Below are positions 2,955 to 61,406 of a DNA stretch of 64,000 nucleotides, in pieces. The notes beneath the pieces are model-generated. The model did not search any database. It had not been told where the DNA came from and was given only the letters and a program-made list of their open reading frames with translations. Origin of the DNA: Octopus vulgaris (Eukaryota); the NCBI GenBank assembly GCA_951406725.2, contig OX597830.1:1116001-1180000 (forward strand), read 5' to 3'. Position numbers and translations under genes: made by a program. Numbering within the stretch: position 1 is the stretch's first letter; the number at the start of each line of letters is the position of its first letter.

Positions 2955-3142
2955 TATATAAAAGGGCTTAGTAAAATAAATTACTTTGCCGCATACTGAA
3001 CTCATTAGAAATAGCAGCTAAAAAAACTTTTTTAAAACTATTTCCAATACTTAAAGAAAATCTCTCTCATATAGTGCTTGTTCAATTCAACTCACGAAAG
3101 TATGAGGGTAGAAACATTAAAAAATCAAATGCAAAGGTTATT

Positions 3143-3195
3143 TGAGAACGTACGTTTCAAGATTAGTCAAACTCGACACTTCTATCATCAGCTCA
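3143..3195 (-). ncRNA. Type I hammerhead ribozyme motif (element A, copy 1)
   Basis: Minus strand reads UGAG-CUGAUGA-[UAGA..GUCGAGUUUGAC..UCUU]-GAAAC-GUAC-GUU/CUCA. Core is canonical, helix I is UGAG/CUCA and helix III is the palindrome ACGUACGU. Confidence 0.8.
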
Positions 3196-3676
3196 GAACT
3201 CCCTGGTTTGGATTTGAAAACACTGAAAGCAGGAGCATACCTATTCGGCTTCCCATCGCCTCCGAAGATCTACTCGCAACTAACAGTGCCAGCAAATTCA
3301 AATATGCAAGCGAAGAATTTCTGCTCTCCCCCTTCCAACAGCGTGGGTTAAAATCAACAAACAACATGCTTTTTTTCGGTAAAATCCGAGGCATTAAATA
3401 GAGAAAGATGAATTATAATTTCAACAATTGAGGGTAAAATTAATTAATTAATCAATTTCACCAAGTATTCAGTATGCAAAGGGACCATTTAAGGCGAATT
3501 CAAATTATTACATTATATAAAAGGGCTTAGTAAAATAAATTACTTTGCCGCATACTGAACTCATTAGAAATAGCAAATAAAAAAACTTTTTTAAAACTAT
3601 TTCCAATACTTAAAGAAAATCTCTCTCATATAGTGCTTGTTCAATTCAGTGTTTTCAAATCCAAACCAGGGAGTTC

Positions 3677-3729
3677 TGAGCTGATGATAGAAGTGTCGAG
3701 TTTGACTAATCTTGAAACGTACGTTCTCA
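3677..3729 (+). ncRNA. Type I hammerhead ribozyme motif (element A, copy 2)
   Basis: tgag CTGATGA tagaagtgtcgagtttgactaatctt GAAAC gtac GTT ctca; the same sequence as copy 1 on the opposite strand. Confidence 0.8.
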
Positions 3730-4009
3730 AATAACCTTTGCATTTGATTTTTTAATGTTTCTACCCTCATACTTTCGTGAGTTGAATTGAACAAGCACTA
3801 TATGAGAGAGATTTTCTTTAAGTATTGGAAATAGTTTTAAAAAAGTTTTTTTAGCTGCTATTTCTAATGAGTTCAGTATGCGGCAAAGTAATTTATTTTA
3901 CTAAGCCCTTTTATATAATGTAATAATTTGAATTCGCCTTAAATGGTCCCTTTGCATACTGAATACTTGGTGAAATTGATTAATTAATTAATTTTACCCT
4001 CAATTGTTG

Positions 4010-4051
<42 letters not shown>

Positions 4052-4069
4052 TATATATAAATATATATA

Positions 4070-4340
4070 TCAGAAATATTCAATTCTCTATTTCTAAAGA
4101 TATGTACGGAGGTGGGGCGATATAATGGTTGTATACTGTCAACTTAACGTGACAGTAGGGGATTATATCACCGCTGTTTAGCCCTAGGAAGCGTCGACGC
4201 ATCCTGTTGGCTTCGACACACTTACTGCCTCCTTATATATTTACGAAGGGGAGACAAATACCCCCAACAGCTAGGCCAGCATCTAGAGACACGCATGTTT
4301 CAGGGTCCTTGCCCTTCATCGGTCTAGAGTAGCATTAGTG
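4070..4340 (-). mobile_element. Non-coding hammerhead-bearing element B (~270 bp) in (TA)n
   Basis: Unique-sequence island between TA tracts, with an HHR near its 5' end on the minus strand. Confidence 0.7.
4282..4328 (-). ncRNA. Type I hammerhead ribozyme motif (element B), U4C core variant
   Basis: Minus strand reads UCUAGA-CCGAUGA-AGGG caagga CCCU-GAAAC AUGCGU GUC/UCUAGA. It has a 6-bp helix I, a 4-bp helix II, a self-complementary helix III (ACAUGCGUGU) and a GUC cleavage triplet. Confidence 0.85.
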
Positions 4341-4490
4341 TATATATATATCTATATATGTATATATATATCTCTCTATATATGTATATATGAATATATC
4401 TATCTATATATATGTATATATATCTTTCTCTATACATTTATATATGAATATATCTATCTATATATATGTATATATGAATATATCTATCTA

Positions 4491-4540
<50 letters not shown>

Positions 4541-4541
<1 letters not shown>

Positions 4542-4753
4542 CGCCATGTTGATTCGTTAGTTACTGCACGCATTTTTTTTCTCTCCTTCTTTCTGTGTTT
4601 TTTTTCTCTCTGTGTATCTTTCTGTTGAAGAGCGTAGGCTCGAAACGTTAAAGACTTGTTTTATTTATATTTCCTGAGCGCCATACTATTACAATTGTTT
4701 GTTTGTTTTCCACCTGCCTTCGTCTTTTGTCTATTTTCATAAAGCTTCCCGTT
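4541..4753 (+). mobile_element. Non-coding element C (~210 bp) with minimal hammerhead-like motif, in (TA)n; related to 61205-61412
   Basis: Motif at 4617-4654: UCUUU-CUGUUGA-A-GAGC guag GCUC-GAA-ACGU-U/AAAGA. The downstream ttcctgagcg motif is shared with the 61.3-kb insert. Confidence 0.6.
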
Positions 4754-5548: not shown

Positions 5549-6647
5549 AAGGAGTCAAATCCAGCCCAGCCAAAGTCAGCAGTGTTGTCCCACAAGGCAC
5601 TGTGTTGGGCCTACTTCTCTTCATCATCTACATAAATGATATTACTGATACCATCAAACACAGTAACATCAGAACCTTCGCTGATGATTCCAAGCTCCAG
5701 AAGGTCATCAATGGCGTGGATGACCGAATAAACCTTCAGTCAGACCTACTGGCTGTTGTCCAATGGGCGGAAAAGAATAACATGTTGCTAAATGAAGACA
5801 AATTCGAACTGATCCACTTTGGAAGGGAGGACGCTCTGAAACACCCATACTCTCTTCCTTCTGGAGAAATTCTCATGGCATACAACAACATCAGAGACCT
5901 GGGAGTAACAGTGGACAACAACATAAGCTGGGCTACACATATAAGCAGCAAAGTTGACATGGCCCGCAGAATGTGTTCCTGGATTCTCAGAACCTTCCAG
6001 TCGAGAGATTCCCACGCTATTATCCTTCTCTTCTCCACTTTTGCCCGACCCCACCTTGAATACTGCTGTCCACTGTGGTCTCCCTACACAAAACAAAATA
6101 TTATGAGAATTGAAGCTCCCCAAAGGTCAATCACAAAAAAGATAGATGGCATGTCAGACCTTGACTACTGGGGTAGACTAGAGAAGCTGAAATTGTATTC
6201 ACTCCAACGAAGCCGTGAACGCTACATTATCTGTATGATGTATATTCCATCAGCACTGTCCGAATGATGTTGGCATCACCTTCAAAATGCATCCAAGGCT
6301 TGGACCACGTGCCATCCGTCCACAACAAAAATCTAAATCGCATCACATAACGACAATACGGCACAAGTACTTCACCTCAATTGGACCCGCTCTCTTCAAC
6401 ATTACACCAGGACACGTCAAAAAAGAAACTGACCACACAAAATTCAAGAAGTCTTTGGACAAATTCCTTCAAACAGTATCGGACAAACCACCCACACCCG
6501 GATATGTCTCCGCAAACAATAACTCTCTGCTCGAACGGGCCTTGGTGCCCAAATCCTGAACTGAAAGACTTCGCCAGGTGGTGCTATTAAGTTAGACATG
6601 GCCTGGGCCAATACTGGCCAAAAACCTTTCTAAGTTATTCTAAGTTA
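5549..6647 (+). mobile_element. 5'-truncated CR1/L2-group LINE (RT C-terminal half + 3' UTR) in (TA)n
   Basis: [36 protein letters not shown] and LKLYSLQR..ERY motifs. 3' tail ggtggtgctattaagttagacatggcc.. ends in (ttctaagtta)x2. Confidence 0.93.
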
Positions 6648-8401: not shown

Positions 8402-10390
8402 ACTTTGATACTTTGATACTTTGATAGGTTTCGGCCATTATTGGCCCAGGCCATGTCTAACTTAATAGCACCACCTGGTGAAGGATTTCAAGTCAGAATT
8501 TGGGCACTATGGCCCACTCAAGTAGAGAGTTATTGTTTACAGAAACATATCCGGGTGTAGGGGGTTTATCCGGGATTTCTTGAAGGAATCTGTCCAAAGA
8601 CTTCTTGAACCCTATAGGGTCAGTTTCTGTTTTAATGTGTTTTGGTGTAATGTTAAAGAGAGCGGGGCCAATTGAGGTGAAATAATTGTGCCGTATTGTT
8701 GTTGTGAGATGAGAGTGCGATTTTTGTTTTTGGCAGATGGCACGGGGCCCAAGCCTTGGGTGTACCTTAAAGGTGATGCCAACATCATTTGGGCAATGCT
8801 GATGGAATATTTTCCACATCATGCAGATGATGTAGCGCTCACGATGACGTTGGAGAGAATAAAGTTTTAGCTTTTCTAGTCGACCCCAGTAGTCGAGGCC
8901 TGTCATGCCATCTATCTTTTTTGTGATTGCCCTTTGAGGTGCTTCAACTTTTATGATATCATGTGGGGAGACCACAGTGGACAACAGTATTCAAGGTGGG
9001 GTCTGGCAAAAGTGGAGAAGAGAAGGATAATGGTGTGGATATCTCTCGACTGGAAAGTTCTGAGAATCCAGGAACACATTCTGCGGGCCATGTCAACTTT
9101 GGTGTTTATATGAGTGGCCCAGCTTATGTTGTCCACAATTACTCCCAAGTCTCTGATGTTGTTGGACGCCGCGAGAGTTTCACCTGAAGGAAGGGAGTAT
9201 GGGAGTTTCAGGGCATCCTCTTTTCCAAAGTGGATTAACTCAAATTTATCCTCGTTCAGCAGCATATTGTTTTTTTCTGCCCATTGGATAACAGCCAGTA
9301 GATCTGACTGAAGGCATGTCCGGTCACTCGCCTCATTTATGACCTTCTGTAGCTTGGAATCATCTGCAAAGATTTTATGTTGCTGTGCTTGATGATGTCA
9401 TTAATGTCATTAATGTAAATGATGAAAAGAAGTGGGCCCAGCACAGTGCCTTGCGGAACGCCACTACTGACTTTGGCTGGGCTTGATTTTACCCCTTCAA
9501 CTACAACATGTTGAGATCTGTCTGTCAGGAAACACCTGATCCATTTCAGTAACTTTCCAGAGACACCAATGTTGGATAGTTTTTTCAATAGGATCTTGTG
9601 ATCGACCCTGTCGAAGGCCTTACTGAAATCAAGGTAGATGACATCGGTGTTGGAGCCCTCTCCCAAAGCTCTCAAAATGTCCTCAAAGTGATGCAGGAGC
9701 TGCGTTAGGCAGTCCCTTCCATTACGGAACCCATGTTGGTTGGAGATCAGCCGTCTGTTGCTTTCCAGAAATTGGGTTATTCGAGATCTCACCACCCTCT
9801 CAAATACCTTGATGATATGAGAGGTGAGTGAGATCGGACGGTAGTTCACTACAAGGGACTTGTTTCCCTTTTTGAAAACTGGGACAACAGACTGGGACAG
9901 AAGGTTTTTTGGAATATAGCCAGCATCCAGTGAGTTTCTCCACAGATAAGCAAGGGGAGATGCAAGTTGGTGTCGACACACCTTCAGGACACAAGCAGGG
10001 AACCTATCGGTGCCTACTGTTGAATTGTGTTTTATTTCGTTTATCGCCGCTAAGACATCAGGGGCACTAAACGTTATGTCCGATATAGTGTGTTGGGGGT
10101 TGACATCACTGATACAGCCCAGATCGGCCATATCAGGATTGCTGAAAACAAAGCAGTATTGTTTCTGCAGAAAACAGAGCAGTATTGTTTCTGCAGAAAA
10201 CAGAGCAGTATTGTTTCTGCAAGCAGTGTTGTTTCTGCAAGCAGTATTGTTTCTGCAAGCAGTATTGTTTCTGCAGCAGTATTGTTTCTGCAAGCAGTGT
10301 TGTTTCTGCAAGCAGTATTGTTTCTGCAAGCAGTATTGTTTCTGCAAGCAGTGTTGTTTCTGCAAGCAGTATTGTTTCTGCAAGCAGTAT
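8402..10390 (-). mobile_element. 5'-truncated CR1/L2-group LINE (RT domain, frameshifted) in (TA)n
   Basis: [47 protein letters not shown], and C-terminal SLLEW. Tail (atcaaagt)x3. Same family as 5549-6647. Confidence 0.95.
10148..10390. repeat. 18-22 bp tandem minisatellite (agcagtattgtttctgca) at the LINE 5' junction
   Basis: About 12-13 units. The unit equals the LINE's own LQKQYC coding sequence. Confidence 0.9.
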
Positions 10391-10568
10391 TCTATATATA
10401 TATCTATCTATATATATATCTATATATCTATATGTATATATATATATCTATATATCTATATCTATATCTCTATATATATATATACATATATCAATATATA
10501 TCTATATATCTATATCTATCTATATCAATATATATCTATATATCTATATCTATCTATCTATCTATCTA

Positions 10569-11525: not shown

Positions 11526-12390
11526 CTCCTCACTAAAACAACCATACTCTCTTCCTTCAGGGGAACCGCTCACAGCCTCTAACAATATCAGAGACCTGGG
11601 TGTAATTGTTGATGACGATCTTAGTTGGAGTGCACACATCAACAAGAAGGTCGATACAGCTCGTAGGATGAGTTCCTGGATCTTAAGAACTTTCCGGTCC
11701 AGAGAACAAGGTGTCATCATACCACTTTTTTCATCCTTTGTACGGCCACTTTGAATACTGCTGCCCACTGTGGTCTCCTCACACAAGACAAAACATCTCC
11801 AGAATTGAGTCACCCCAGAGGGCTCTCACTAAACAAATTGAAGGCATGGCTGCTCTCGACTATTGGGATCGCCTTAAAGCCTTGAAACTTTACTCCCTCC
11901 AGCGTCGCCGTGAGCGGTACATCATTTGTACGATGTGGAAAATATACCGCCAACTTTGCCCAAACGACCTAAACATTAGCTTCAAGGTTCATCCGAGACT
12001 TGGACCACGGGCTATACGTCCCCTGCCAAATTCAAGATCACAACATACATGTACACTGCAACATAATTTCTTTTCCTCAACAGGCCCTGCCCTATTTAAC
12101 ATTGTCCCGAGGGAGATCAAAGAGGAAAAGGATCCCATCAACTTCAAACAGAGTCTGGATAGATTCCTTCAAAGAATACCAGACAAGCCACTCATAATTG
12201 GATACAACTCACCCAACAAGAAGTCACTACTTGAACAAAACTGGATACAACTCACCCAACAAGAACTCACTACTTGAACAAAACTTGACTTAAACAGGAT
12301 TCGAATAATCCTATCAGGTGGTGCTATTAAGTTAGACATGGCCTGGACCAATCTCTGGTCGAAACATATCTAAGTTTTATCTAAGTTTTA
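11526..12390 (+). mobile_element. 5'-truncated CR1/L2-group LINE 3' end in (TA)n (sister subfamily)
   Basis: [23 protein letters not shown] and LKLYSLQRRRERY motifs. Same 3' UTR core, tail (atctaagtttt)x2. Confidence 0.92.
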
Positions 12391-12414
12391 TATATATCTA
12401 TATATATATATATA

Positions 12415-12483
<69 letters not shown>

Positions 12484-12536
12484 ATATATATATCTATATA
12501 TCTATATATATATATACATATCTATATATCTATATA

Positions 12537-12615
<79 letters not shown>

Positions 12616-12620
12616 ATATA

Positions 12621-12681
<61 letters not shown>

Positions 12682-12686
12682 ATATA

Positions 12687-14691
12687 TCGATGCTCCTACT
12701 GAACATCAGAGGACTGCAAACACTCAGTAACAGGACAAAGATCCCGTTCCTGAGAGACTTTGTTGCATGCAATCAAGCCTTATGCATAGCACCTACAGAA
12801 ACGCACCTGAAACCGGACATAGCAGATGCGGAGTTACACATACCACAGTATGCTGTACTACGGACCGACAGGAAAGAAAGGAGTCATGGAGGTGTTGCTA
12901 TGTACATCCGTGAGGACCTCACACCCCAGGTCCTCTTGTCATACTCAAACTCGGTGTGTGACACACTAATTGTACATATTAGGCAACTTGATGTAGTTGT
13001 GTGTGCTACATATCGCCCTCCAGATGCCCCAAGCCATGTGGGCAAGTTTGAAGACTGCCTTATAAAAATAGAAGAAATTCTAACCACATTAGAACAACAC
13101 ATAGGTGTGCTTCTTATGGGAGACTTCAATCTGCCCAATGTCAGATGACCCGAGGGCCTTTCTCTCCCAGGAATGACAAGATGTGAACGAGGACAGGCGA
13201 GGTCCCTCCTGAACCTCATCAACATCCTGTACATGGAGCAGGTAATACTCCAACCAAACAGGGCAGGTAACACACTGGATCTCTGCTTCACAAATGACAT
13301 GGATCTCATCCATAATGTGAAAGTGACACCGACACTACTCTCGGATCACAACATGATAGAGCTGACCATGTACGGGCCAAAAGAGAGCACGGACATGCAG
13401 CCTACAAGAAACCCTCAAAATCTTTCCAGCTTGAACTACCATAAGGCAAACTGGAAACAAATTGAGAAAGAGATCCTCAAACAAAACTGGCCTAAATGTC
13501 TCTCCTTACCAGACATCGACGTGAAACTTCAACAATTCATGTCTGTAATGCAAGCCATATGCTACAAATGTGTCCCAGAGAGAAAGGCCACTGTACACAA
13601 GAACAAAATCCCCAGAGAGAGGAAAATTTTAATGAGACGGCGTACGAAATTTTCAAATCGCCTAAATAAACAGATTGAAAGCAGTGAAAATAAAAAGCCT
13701 AAAAATAAAACTGTTGGAAATCGAAAAATGTCTGCAACTCTCCCATGAAAAAGAAAGAGCAGACAAAGAAGCCTGGCTATAGAAAACATAAAATCTAACC
13801 CCAGAGCTTTCTACAGGTATGCCAAAGAAACAGCTACAGTGCACTGTAGAATAGGGCCACTCCTCGAAAAGGATGGCACACTTACAGGAAAACCAATGAG
13901 GGTAAGTGAAATACTGAATGAGCAATTCAAGAGTGTTTTCACTCCACCCCTTGGGCATCTCCAAATCACCAATCCAACTGACTTTTTTACCACTGCAGAT
14001 ATAAAATCAGAGGCGGCGACGATAGATTACATCGATATAAAGGAAGACGATGTAACCAAGGCTATAGATGAAATGAAAACAGACTCAGCTACTGGCCCCG
14101 ATGGATTCCCGGCAATCCTCCTAAAAGCATGTAAGAGAGTCCTAGCAAGACCACTACAGTTACTCTTTCAGAGCTTCCTTGCAGCTGGCAAACTTCCAGG
14201 AAAACTGAAGGAAGGTAAAATATGCCCCATTCATAAAGGAGGTAGCAGAGCGGAAGCCAAGAACTATAGACCTATCTCTCTGACCTCACACATCAGCAAG
14301 GTCATGGAACGAATAGTCAGAAGGAAGCTGATCACCTTCCTTGAAGAGAATGACTTGCTGCCCGACACCCAACATGGTTTCCGACCAGGGAGAAGCTGTT
14401 TAACTCAGCTCCTACAACACTATGACTGGGTGCTGAAACGGCTGCTCAACCACTCAAATGTGGAAGTGATATATCTCGACTTTGCAAAGGCCTTTGATAA
14501 AGTCGATCATGGAATGATATGTCACAAACTGCGTGATCTCAACATAGTTGGAAAACTGGGAGAATGGCTTCATGACTTTCTAAAAGATAGAAATCAGGTG
14601 GTAGTGAAACCAAGTAGCAACACCAAATGGCGGTGCCCCAGCAAGGCCACAGCTCATAAGCTGAAACTAGAATCAATCAATCAATCAATCA

Positions 14692-14695
<4 letters not shown>
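12687..14695 (+). mobile_element. CR1/L2-group LINE ORF2 fragment (APE endonuclease + RT N-half) fused to a short 3' tail
   Basis: [36 protein letters not shown] and SDH (APE). NYRPISLTSH and YLDFAKAFDKVDH (RT). Breaks at ~14605 into tail ggcggtgccccagcaaggccacagctc..gctgaaac(aatc)n. Confidence 0.93.
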
Positions 14696-14744
<49 letters not shown>

Positions 14745-14876
14745 TTATATATACATATATATAGATAGATTTATATATATATATATATATAGATTTATAT
14801 ATATATATATAGATATATATATATATTATATATATAGATATATATATATATTTATATATCTATATATACGTATATA

Positions 14877-14939
<63 letters not shown>

Positions 14940-15945
14940 ATATATATATATATATATATAGATTTGTAGCATATGGCTTGCATTACAGACATGAATTGTT
15001 GAAGTTTCACGTCGATGTCTGGCGAGGAGAGACATTTAGGCCAGTTTTGTTTGAGGATCTCTTTCTCAATTTGTTTCCAGTTTGCCTTATGGTAGTTCAA
15101 GCTGGAAAGATTCTGGGGGTTTCTTGTAGGCTGCATGTCCGTGCTCTCTTTTGGCCCGTACATGGTCAGCTCTATCATGTTGTGATCCGAGTGTAGTGTC
15201 GGTGTCACTTTCACATTATGGATGAGATCCATGTCATTTGTGAAGCAGAGATCCAGTGTGTTACCTGGTTGGTTGGAGTATTACCTGCTCCATGTAAAGG
15301 GTGTTGATGAGGTTCAGGAGGGACCTCGCCTGTCCTCGTTCACATCTTGTCATTCCTGGGAGAGAAAGGCCCTCGGGCAATCTGACATCGGGCAGGTTGA
15401 AGTCTCCCATAAGAAGTACACTTATGTGTTGTTCTAATGTGGTTAGAACTTCTATTTTTATAAGGCAGTCTTCAAACTTGCCCACATGGCTTGGGGCATC
15501 TGGAGGGCGATATGTAGCACACACAACTACATCAAGTTGCCTAATATGTAAAATTAGTGTGTCACACACCGAGTTTGAGTATGACAAGAGGACCTGGGGT
15601 GTGAGGTCCTCACGGATGTACATAGCAACTCCTCCATGACTCCTTTCTTTCCTGTCGGTCCGTAGTACAGCATACTGTGGTATGTGTAAATCCGCATCTG
15701 CTATGTCCGGTTTCAGGTGCGTTTCCGTTAGTGCTATGCATAAGGCTTGATTGCATGCAACAAAATCTCTCAGGAACGGGATTTTTGTCCTGTTACTGAG
15801 TGTTTGCAGTCCTCTGATGTTCAGTAGGAGCATCGAGGTGAGGTGTACGTTGTTGCCGGTGGTGTCCATCCTGGGTCTGTTTGCTGTGGTGGTCTGGTAT
15901 ATAGTGGGTAGTCTCACCTTCGGGCTTGGGTTTGATGAAGCCAGG

Positions 15946-16725
15946 TCAGCTGCTGTACAATCTTTTGTGCCATGCACAAAAAGATTGTTGCTCAGCAGCT
16001 GCCCTTTCGACAACATCATGTTGGTGGTTTGTGGCACGCACAACATCTGCGTACCTCCGCTTTGGGGCAAGTGGTGCGTGGTCCATCCCTTTTCCTTGTG
16101 TTGATGGCTTATCCATCTGCCTCGTGTCTCTGTGGCAGGGTCCCCGATGTGCAAAGCGGCAGCCTGCGCCTTTCTTTCCATGCCAGCAGGAACCTCTCAG
16201 GTAGAACCTACACACCCGTGTGCGCTGTTTGTTTCCTTCTTTTGCGGTTCCACTTCTATTCCTGATTCTTTCACCCTTTGGTCCTGCTTGAGCTTTTCCT
16301 TTAGCTCTACCAGCCCTTCTTTTAGTTCTTCCTCCTCCCTCTACCTCTTCACCGGGTTCTCCGTCTCCATGGCCTTTGCTGCCGGTTGGAGAACTTGCAC
16401 CTGGGTTCACTTCCCGGGCAGGTTTCTCATTCAAAACCTCCTCCCGGGCATCCACAAGGTGGGGGTGACTTCTTTCATCGTCTCCATTCTTGCCATCTTT
16501 GCCCCGCTCGTTCTCAAAGATGGCATCAATTGCGCCAATGTGCGACCGTATAAGCGCATATGAGCGCACGAATTCCCGTCTCTTTCGCTCCATCTGAGCC
16601 GCTGTCCTCTTGTAGCCTTTGCTCTTCAGCGCAGCCGCAATCACTTCGCTAGGGCTATCTCCGTCGGCGCACGTCCATGCTCGTACGAATAAATCTAGTT
16701 CGTCAGGTCTCCATGCTCTGGACAT
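15946..16725 (-). CDS. LINE ORF1 protein, 259 aa: N-terminal Myb/SANT-like (trihelix) domain, charged linker, CCCH zinc finger
   Basis: W-x3-E..F..AW....IA..L...GYKRTAAQMERK...F...Y pattern; CRFYLRGSCWHGKKGAGCRFAH; YADVV motif. Lies directly upstream of the APE ORF. Confidence 0.72.
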   Translation of the reverse strand: MSRAWRPDELDLFVRAWTCADGDSPSEVIAAALKSKGYKRTAAQMERKRREFVRSYALIRSHIGAIDAIFENERGKDGKNGDDERSHPHLVDAREEVLNEKPAREVNPGASSPTGSKGHGDGEPGEEVEGGGRTKRRAGRAKGKAQAGPKGERIRNRSGTAKEGNKQRTRVCRFYLRGSCWHGKKGAGCRFAHRGPCHRDTRQMDKPSTQGKGMDHAPLAPKRRYADVVRATNHQHDVVERAAAEQQSFCAWHKRLYSS

Positions 16726-21199: not shown

Positions 21200-21464
21200 A
21201 TATATATATATATCTATATATATCTATATCTATATATATATATATATCTATATCTATCTATATATATATCTATATCTATATCTATATATCTATATATATA
21301 TAGTGACGTATTTTTGCCATTTCAATATGGCTAACCCTAAGGGTGGATGCTACAGTAGTTTTAGCCCCAGGAGGACACACTCCTCCAGCTGGCCATAGAC
21401 ACACTATCTGTGTCCTGTCAGTATTTGCAAGGGAAGTCATCCTTCCCGTCTTCAACTTATGATA

Positions 21465-21509
21465 CACACGGACTCGAGTTTCGAGGTATTGACCTCTCGT
21501 CAGCGTGTG
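21465..21509 (-). ncRNA. Type I hammerhead ribozyme (element F, left arm)
   Basis: Reverse complement of 21645-21689. Confidence 0.9.
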
Positions 21510-21644
21510 ACAATCATAGTTGTCGCCGAGAATTAGATTTCCTTCACAAATACTTATACTTTTTCCAGCGTCCACTGTCGCTGATATTGAAAAAGTATAA
21601 GTATTTGTGAAGGAAATCTAATTCTCGGCGACAACTATGATTGT

Positions 21645-21689
21645 CACACGCTGACGAGAGGTCAATACCTCGAAACTCGAGTCCGTGTG
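21645..21689 (+). ncRNA. Type I hammerhead ribozyme (element F, right arm), fully canonical core
   Basis: CACACG-CUGACGA-GAGG ucaaua CCUC-GAAAC-UCGA-GUC/CGUGUG. Helix I extends through an internal loop (aacuaugau-ugu / u-aucauaaguu; 21633-21700). Confidence 0.92.
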
Positions 21690-21909
21690 TATCATAAGTT
21701 GAAGACGGGAAGGATGACTTCCCTTTGCAAATACTGACAGGACACAGATAGTGTGTCTATGGCCAGCTGGAGGAGTGTGTCCTCCTGGGGCTAAAAACTA
21801 CTGTAGCATCCACCCTTAGGTGTTAGCCATATTGAAATGGCAAAAATACGTCACGATGTGTTACCGCTACTGTATATAACTCACTTTGATATTTATCATT
21901 ATATATATA

Positions 21910-61206: not shown

Positions 61207-61406
61207 CAAAATGTGACCTCGTGTGTACCGTTGGCGATTTTTTTCCTCTGTCTTCCCTTCTCTGGATCTTTCCTTCTCCTATGTTTCCGACGAAGAGCTC
61301 TGCTCGAAACGTTAAACCCTCCTTCTTTCCTGAGCGTCCAATAATACTATATTTGTTCCACGTCCTCGCGTTGTTGTGTTTTTTTTGTGCTTTCTTGTTT
61401 GGATTA

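Follow-up and report, generated by a model that had tools for sequence, protein, structure and literature searches.

A C4 hammerhead core variant in a truncated Octopus vulgaris retrozyme copy, with a predicted double-hammerhead fold and a LINE that ends upstream of its relatives

On the minus strand of a 64,000-nt stretch of Octopus vulgaris DNA (contig OX597830.1, positions 1,116,001 to 1,180,000; the window), positions 4282–4328 carry a motif with the layout of a hammerhead ribozyme and with C at core position 4. The locus raises the question of what element this motif belongs to, whether C4 marks a lineage or a decayed copy, and whether the ribozyme would cut by itself or together with a second copy. 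The motif is built as follows.

4282–4328, minus strand: type I hammerhead motif, C4 variant (motif reading, window scan with shuffles, covariation)
4323–4328, minus strand: helix I 5′ strand, palindromic hexamer UCUAGA (motif reading)
4316–4322, minus strand: core C3–A9 (CCGAUGA), with C4 at 4321 (motif reading; letter frequencies in genomic copies)
4302–4315, minus strand: helix II, A10.1-U11.1 plus three G-C pairs, with a 6-nt loop 2 (motif reading, family comparison)
4289–4298, minus strand: helix III, ACAUGCGUGU, 3 bp plus a 4-nt loop in the monomer and a 10-bp duplex in the dimer (folding)
4292, minus strand: G in the helix III segment, predicted partner of C4 in the off-fold (folding)
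4287–4288, minus strand: predicted cleavage site, 3′ of C17 (GUC) (hammerhead consensus applied to the motif)
4282–4287, minus strand: helix I 3′ strand, hexamer UCUAGA again (motif reading)

Read on the minus strand from 4328 to 4282, the motif gives the core letters C3 C4 G5 A6 U7 G8 A9, GAA between helix II and helix III, and C17 at 4288, which bears out the CCGAUGA core and the UCUAGA hexamer on both helix I strands reported in the initial annotation. Three helices surround the core and the motif is open at helix I, which is the type I layout. C3, G5, A6, G8, A9, G12–A14, A15.1-U16.1 and H17 are all present; position 4 is C in place of U, and we file the motif as a core variant, C4 being a tolerated natural variant. 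The base of helix II is A-U in place of G10.1-C11.1, and the 6-nt loop 2 ends in A. In the main C4 subfamily, 43 of 48 copies sampled have U-U at the helix II base, a known natural variant (PMC3088659, PMC7229834; here and below, cited papers are drawn on for the sections that treat the point in question) that is also found in axolotl Amex2, a hammerhead that works better as a dimer (PMC7229834).

The window holds three strong hammerhead motifs, and none was found in any of 20 dinucleotide shuffles. A relaxed scan gave eight hits, seven of them credible and belonging to four families, with C4 in two (4282 and 61283). In 15 hand-picked, related rows, 7 of 13 pairs had changed on both sides, four of six in helix I and three of four in helix II, with helix III invariant. 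It is very improbable that the motif arose by chance or serves some other function, for instance as a DNA palindrome or as a C/D-box-like element that binds protein: such a reading can draw on the Rfam result, no hammerhead match at the gathering threshold over the whole window or at E ≤ 10 near the motif, and on one of two chance-level matches near the motif (E 7.6 and 9.3, the latter a C/D snoRNA model), and it is opposed by the shuffle control, by the covariation in helices I and II and by the fully canonical hammerheads of the homologous family C described below. Judged by its sequence, 4282–4328 is a genuine hammerhead core variant in a truncated retrozyme copy. A role for the helix I palindrome, which the initial annotation pointed out, found no support. 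In sister subfamilies compensatory changes preserve the helix and the palindrome is lost, family C lacks it, and in folding the double hammerhead does not require it; we rejected a functional palindrome, and it is probably incidental.

The motif lies within a 271-bp repeat flanked by microsatellites, with unit positions numbered from the cleavage site.

4069–4339, minus strand: solo 5′-truncated copy of the 355-nt retrozyme unit, unit positions 304–355 then 1–223 (genome search, unit reconstruction, arm survey)
4012–4070: (TA)n microsatellite at the element's 3′ end
4341–4541: TA-rich microsatellite at the element's 5′ end

This copy has neither a partner arm nor a tandem neighbor, carries no LINE, and is non-coding (no ORF of at least 120 aa across it). 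A genome search with the 271-bp repeat gave 60 matches from the 40 candidates scored of 1680, and a 27-mer from its 3′ part has 718 exact genome matches. Head-to-tail junctions set the unit length at 355 nt, with 41% GC, and this family (family A) falls within the size class of non-LTR retrozymes (170–400 nt, non-coding, GC below 50%). Folded as a 355-nt circle, the unit is predicted to be 61% paired, with a z-score of −5.3 against 100 shuffles. Tandem units, the mark of an active element, are present at the level of the family, as dimers (L283–L285) and as three units (L344), and are rare; the window copy is a solo, truncated derivative of that family. It is probably inert, and could act only in trans.

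We surveyed 138 arms in 100 loci picked by a 3′ anchor. The arms have a median length of 153 nt; 58 end at unit positions 160–169 and 76 at 215–229, giving two native 3′ ends, and TA repeats come next after 54. The whole motif is contained in 19 of the 138, eight are longer than one unit, and one holds two hammerheads. This survey showed no excess of 5′ ends at the cleavage site (stops per nt were 0.0146 there and 0.0135–0.0152 alongside). Inverted partner arms are common in the family, and the inverted 5′-truncated arms, the optional tail and the microsatellite target together are anatomy of the Penelope type. As its sequence reads, the window element is a solo truncated copy whose family, a non-LTR retrozyme family with a 355-nt unit, has insertion anatomy of this type.

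Family A shares with the metazoan non-LTR retrozymes of Cervera and de la Pena (2020, PMC7229834) the type I motif, the 6-bp helix I and 4-bp helix II, a non-coding unit (here 355 nt) with GC below 50%, a strongly self-paired predicted circle and the occurrence of tandem copies. It differs from them in its C4 core, in its mostly dispersed, truncated or inverted copies with few arrays, and in that its circle is known here from folding. Moreover, local blocking of the core is predicted for the family A monomer; in most metazoan circles described in that paper the motif is left free. With the hammerheads of Penelope-like elements (PLEs; Cervera and de la Pena 2014, PMC4209133; Lunse et al. via PMC6765202) it shares a palindromic helix III and the dimer model, as well as inverted 5′-truncated arms, two 3′ ends and microsatellite targets. 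Unlike those elements as described there, the family A unit contains no RT/GIY-YIG ORF and has helices of canonical size in place of the minimal motif.

A PLE partner is one that we infer, because the GIY-YIG loci share no sequence with the 355-nt unit. Among 30 short and 14 long GIY-YIG loci there was no autonomous Penelope partner with unit sequence, and the long family loci scanned contained no RT plus GIY-YIG ORF between pseudo-LTRs. The genome does have GIY-YIG frames of 781 aa; two of these loci (L268, L269; 9.9 kb) have intact RT frames and many near-identical copies, and a scan of both found no hammerhead. The two 3′ ends and the inversion resemble the Penelope "tail" and inversion signature as presented in PMC8557442 and PMC11167929, and the anatomy of the family agrees with a preprint (10.64898/2026.07.22.740005) whose relevant section derives retrozymes from PLEs. 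In the mechanism that we propose, tandem transcripts would be cut to monomers and ligated to circles, a Penelope-type RT would use the circles, or read-through RNA left uncleaved, as templates for new genomic copies, and the enzyme of a PLE likely inserted the solo truncated copy into the TA microsatellite. The two native 3′ ends and the inverted arms give direct genomic support for PLEs moving retrozymes, and the two ends indicate where the RT would start.

Other hammerhead elements in the window provide the comparison for the C4 core.

21303–21900: family C inverted pair, 353-nt unit, with canonical U4 hammerheads at 21465–21509 (minus strand) and 21645–21689 (plus strand) (scan, homology)
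61283–61317, plus strand: minimal (Penelope-type) hammerhead with C4, from a different family (scan, family listing)

Family C is homologous to family A (55% global identity, z 8.6 outside the motif). Its window pair is young, at 97–98% identity to tandem units, and the family has 980 exact motif matches genome-wide, with many multi-unit arrays including a 9-unit C4 array. The family of the minimal hammerhead at 61283 has at least 611 copies and no similarity to the unit of either retrozyme, A or C; one of its copies lies near a GIY-YIG remnant (L254/L274). At 3022–3850 there is an inverted Penelope-type pair with identical arms and canonical U4 hammerheads at 3143–3195 (minus strand) and 3677–3729 (plus strand). 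A minimal hammerhead with an A6U core change, at 4617–4654, sits in a short element between TA repeats and resembles the 61283 element at 75% across 83 bp. Broken LINE pieces with RT and APE domains, split by TA microsatellites, occupy 5551–6267, 9337–10407, 12336–14768 and 15261–16196.

We determined the frequency of C4 among genomic copies, as the initial annotation had proposed. C4 is present in 221 of 318 copies that match the exact core plus helix I pattern, and hence the window copy is no point mutant; of the others, 69 form a U4 subfamily whose helix II region is 13 nt long and 28 are of different kinds, and exact patterns of this sort miss divergent U4 sister subfamilies. A sample anchored at the 3′ end gave 20 motifs, nine with C4, nine with U4 and two others. 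Our first, narrower patterns (90 C4, 6 U4, 2 G5A) fixed helix II and overstated the C4 share, and were replaced. Within that narrow 14-nt type the stray U4 (6/98, next to G5A in 2/98) matches decay at other CpGs, where 3.7% of 379 cells read TG and 6.3% CA. Inside a C4 lineage, helix II shows a compensatory change from G-C to A-U. When 54 of the 106 copies are placed in a midpoint-rooted tree, the U4 13-nt group is nested among C4 rows, and the divergent sisters outside that tree are all U4. Divergent U4 sister subfamilies (L344, L347, L365) have a 6-nt, perfectly palindromic helix III, and L344 is the locus with three tandem units.

Beyond family A, C4 occurs in 297 of the 980 family C copies and, by hand count, in 64 of the first 100 listed of the 611 copies of the minimal-hammerhead family. 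The initial annotation had counted three unrelated U4C elements here and taken them as tolerated variation, not decay. The count does not stand: the relaxed scan and the arm survey found no third C4 element in the window besides 4282 and 61283, its family C copies are U4, and A and C are homologous. The view of tolerance is supported, with C4 the majority state in exact-pattern copies, recurrent in families and accompanied by a compensatory helix II change, and with U4 subfamilies existing as well. C4 recurs and can amplify in at least two kinds of element that are unrelated to each other, and in the copies sampled it appears to be the majority state of the subfamilies of the window copy. We dropped ADAR editing as a source of C4; it requires an antisense template, for which there is no evidence.

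U4C lowers activity in vitro yet supports a viroid in vivo (PMC3088659, citing Ambros and Flores 1998). That viroid hammerhead carries the same substitution; here the change has become fixed in several multi-copy genomic subfamilies, which belong to three families of animal elements. As far as our literature searches reach (Repbase, Lunse et al. and two supplements excepted), C4 fixed in hundreds of genomic copies is new; two supplements of PMC4209133 had no match to octopus or to a C4 core, one further file lying outside the search. Since searches with the canonical core miss C4 motifs, hammerhead censuses undercount, and here the motifs number hundreds in three families. The assembled contigs of four runs that we guess to be RNA cover the motif with both position 4 letters, the depth of U at that position being 0/104, 19/24, 5/40 and 15/15. 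Joints in these contigs that go back 355 nt were set aside, as they are explained by a duplicated part of the reference and are not informative on circles.

The claim that helix III, ACAUGCGUGU, pairs with a second copy of itself was confirmed, with 10 bp including two G-U and a self-duplex energy of −12.5 kcal/mol. Because helix III in the monomer is 3 bp with a 4-nt loop, only the self-complementarity of loop 3 is informative. Folded in isolation, the motif reaches −7.4 kcal/mol in the active monomer fold (P 0.0008) and its minimum of −10.5 kcal/mol in an off-fold, in which the core pairs with helix III and position 4 with the last base of loop 3; the energy model ignores loop 1–loop 2 contacts and the folded set had no monomer-active control, so that the off-fold may be a bias of the model. 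Two copies fold at −30.7 kcal/mol into a double hammerhead, which is the cofold minimum, and all three natural tandem dimers fold with an inter-copy helix III (P 0.78–1.0). A motif on its own is predicted to adopt an off-state, its core paired with the helix III of the same motif and C4 with the loop 3 G; two motifs in tandem would share a 10-bp helix III. On these models, the C4 motif is predicted to cleave slowly and for the most part in the double-hammerhead form. Dimer-gated cleavage, as suggested in the initial annotation, is plausible; it fits the folding and corresponds to the published dimer model.

Alternatively, the motif could be an ordinary monomer-active hammerhead of an invertebrate retrozyme, for which the 3-bp helix III and loop 1–loop 2 contacts suffice, C4 being mildly slowing and neutral and the palindromes by-products. 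Retrozymes from coral and mussel cleave efficiently in monomeric form (PMC7229834), published invertebrate retrozymes mostly do so (PMC7229834, PMC7761336), and so do most invertebrate type I motifs (PMC7761336). Moreover, a 3-bp helix III exceeds the 1–2 bp typical of dimer-dependent motifs (PMC4209133), and any hairpin stem is self-complementary in a dimer. However, helix III alone has +1.7 kcal/mol, the probability of the A15.1-U16.1 pair in the monomer is about zero, and a self-complementary helix III recurs across the other families seen. We consider a monomer-active motif unlikely.

Under the double-hammerhead reading, position 4 and the last loop 3 base would form a pair in the off-state. 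In a non-random sample of 106 copies these two bases were C/G in 66, U/A in 26, U/G in 8, C/A in 4 and others in 2, a covariation that amounts to one subfamily event in which both changes are CpG transitions. The pair is kept in all 11 rows with letters. Both natural circles that we folded keep it (P 0.77 and 0.89), the value in the linear window copy being 0.21; in family C, position 4 is weakly paired (P 0.05–0.46). The loop 3 A of the U4/A type also perfects the dimer helix. Covariation of position 4 with loop 3 in a predicted off-fold would be new among the literature searched. The metazoan retrozyme paper leaves open, in the part that treats circles, how these avoid cutting themselves (PMC7229834), and the predicted off-fold between core and helix III, with its natural C4/G and U4/A versions, would be one testable answer.

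In many copies of the family, a LINE of 5448 bp with a CCHC ORF1 and an APE-RT ORF2 terminates upstream of the core, at a distance of about 30 nt. The 3′ end of this LINE has 19 exact matches, of which seven are followed by family A (six of 18 insertions) and three by hammerhead-like motifs of other families, which places the LINE above the 20% one-target criterion; the 3′-end pattern held three junction letters known beforehand, a slight bias. We read 14 distinct family A loci fully: five have the upstream part of the retrozyme and a 17–21-nt duplication, and nine are without that part. One of the five (L100) is a 5′-truncated LINE in the U4 subfamily with a duplication, demonstrating independent insertions. 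At another locus (L092, 3148–7427), the LINE 3′ part and the retrozyme form an inverted arm pair with both native retrozyme ends and microsatellite flanks; RNA running through the cleavage site was therefore copied intact. Such read-through fits slow or gated cleavage, and copying of this kind inflates the count of LINE-retrozyme junctions. In an unconverged tree of LINE 3′ ends (40 rows, including truncated ones), the family A ends cluster, with 5 changes against 11.8 in shuffles, and read-through copying could be the cause.

These junctions bear on a further alternative, that the C4 ribozyme is effectively dead and the family a SINE-like passenger of a Penelope RT that needs no cleavage, with non-cleaving masters over-represented and RNA intact across the site. 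Two weakening changes occur together (C4 and the broken 10.1-11.1 pair). The whole motif remains in the 19 of 138 arms noted above, against 16 of 19 in a young canonical subfamily of family C (about a dozen sites), and absence of the upstream retrozyme part in 9 of 14 LINE-joined loci is as expected of uncleaved read-through; furthermore, Naiad PLEs thrive without hammerheads, as stated in the relevant section of PMC8557442. This is countered by the compensatory helix II change inside the C4 lineage, by the retention of the remaining core and the GUC site, and by the 9-unit C4 array of family C and the C4 dimers of family A. A dead ribozyme seems to us rather doubtful.

Outside family A, 24 further LINE places were read. 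Six of these (L104, L199, L201, L202, L213, L214) are found directly upstream of further hammerhead-like motifs, all with duplications; three of these target families are homologous to A or C, with homology unproven for one. Duplicated sites without a hammerhead also exist (L107, L204–L208), so the preference is not absolute, and the target sites have little in common beyond three letters. These junctions indicate that an L1/Tx1-type LINE inserts preferentially at one site, about 30 nt upstream of the core, both in family A and in related families. Tx1-clade LINEs that target other transposons are known (Tx1L into Tx1D, Tx1-Mar into Mariner-N4; PMC4494074), and the octopus LINE shares with that clade the CCHC ORF1, the APE-RT ORF2 and a preference, above the 20% criterion, for one site in another mobile element. 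It differs from the Tx1-clade LINEs treated in that paper in having a hammerhead retrozyme as target, and the likeness is one of domains and targeting, no match of the LINE being named Tx1. The literature searched (Repbase and Lunse et al. lying outside its reach) contained no LINE targeting retrozymes, and if true, retrozymes would constitute a new class of target for LINEs with a site preference.

Taken as a whole, the explanation that we consider probable is that the motif belongs to a 355-nt retrozyme, that a PLE inserted this solo copy, that the C4 ribozyme is slow and works as a double hammerhead, and that the family is targeted by the LINE. The anatomy, copy counts, unit length, two native 3′ ends, inverted arms and covariation that enter into it were observed. 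A more far-reaching version, which we regard as improbable, would have slowed C4 hammerheads repeatedly adopted, with helix III keeping the core of its own motif locked pending the arrival of a second copy, a switch that protects circles and leaves uncleaved templates; the LINE would have specialized on the upstream site across a retrozyme superfamily, using the ribozyme as a 3′-end cutter and the Penelope signals as a second route of spread, so that a LINE would parasitize a retrozyme that parasitizes a PLE.

Further arrangements were seen at individual LINE loci. Sequence like the LINE 5′ end directly follows the hammerhead cleavage triplet at L213 (G000:C16 near 20780170) and the 3′ end of another LINE at L217. 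At L059, L062 and L063, what follows the LINE 3′ end is a fragment of the end of the element's own ORF2, in antisense orientation. Finally, the related family at L214 has a U3-A8 core covariant just downstream of the LINE insertion.
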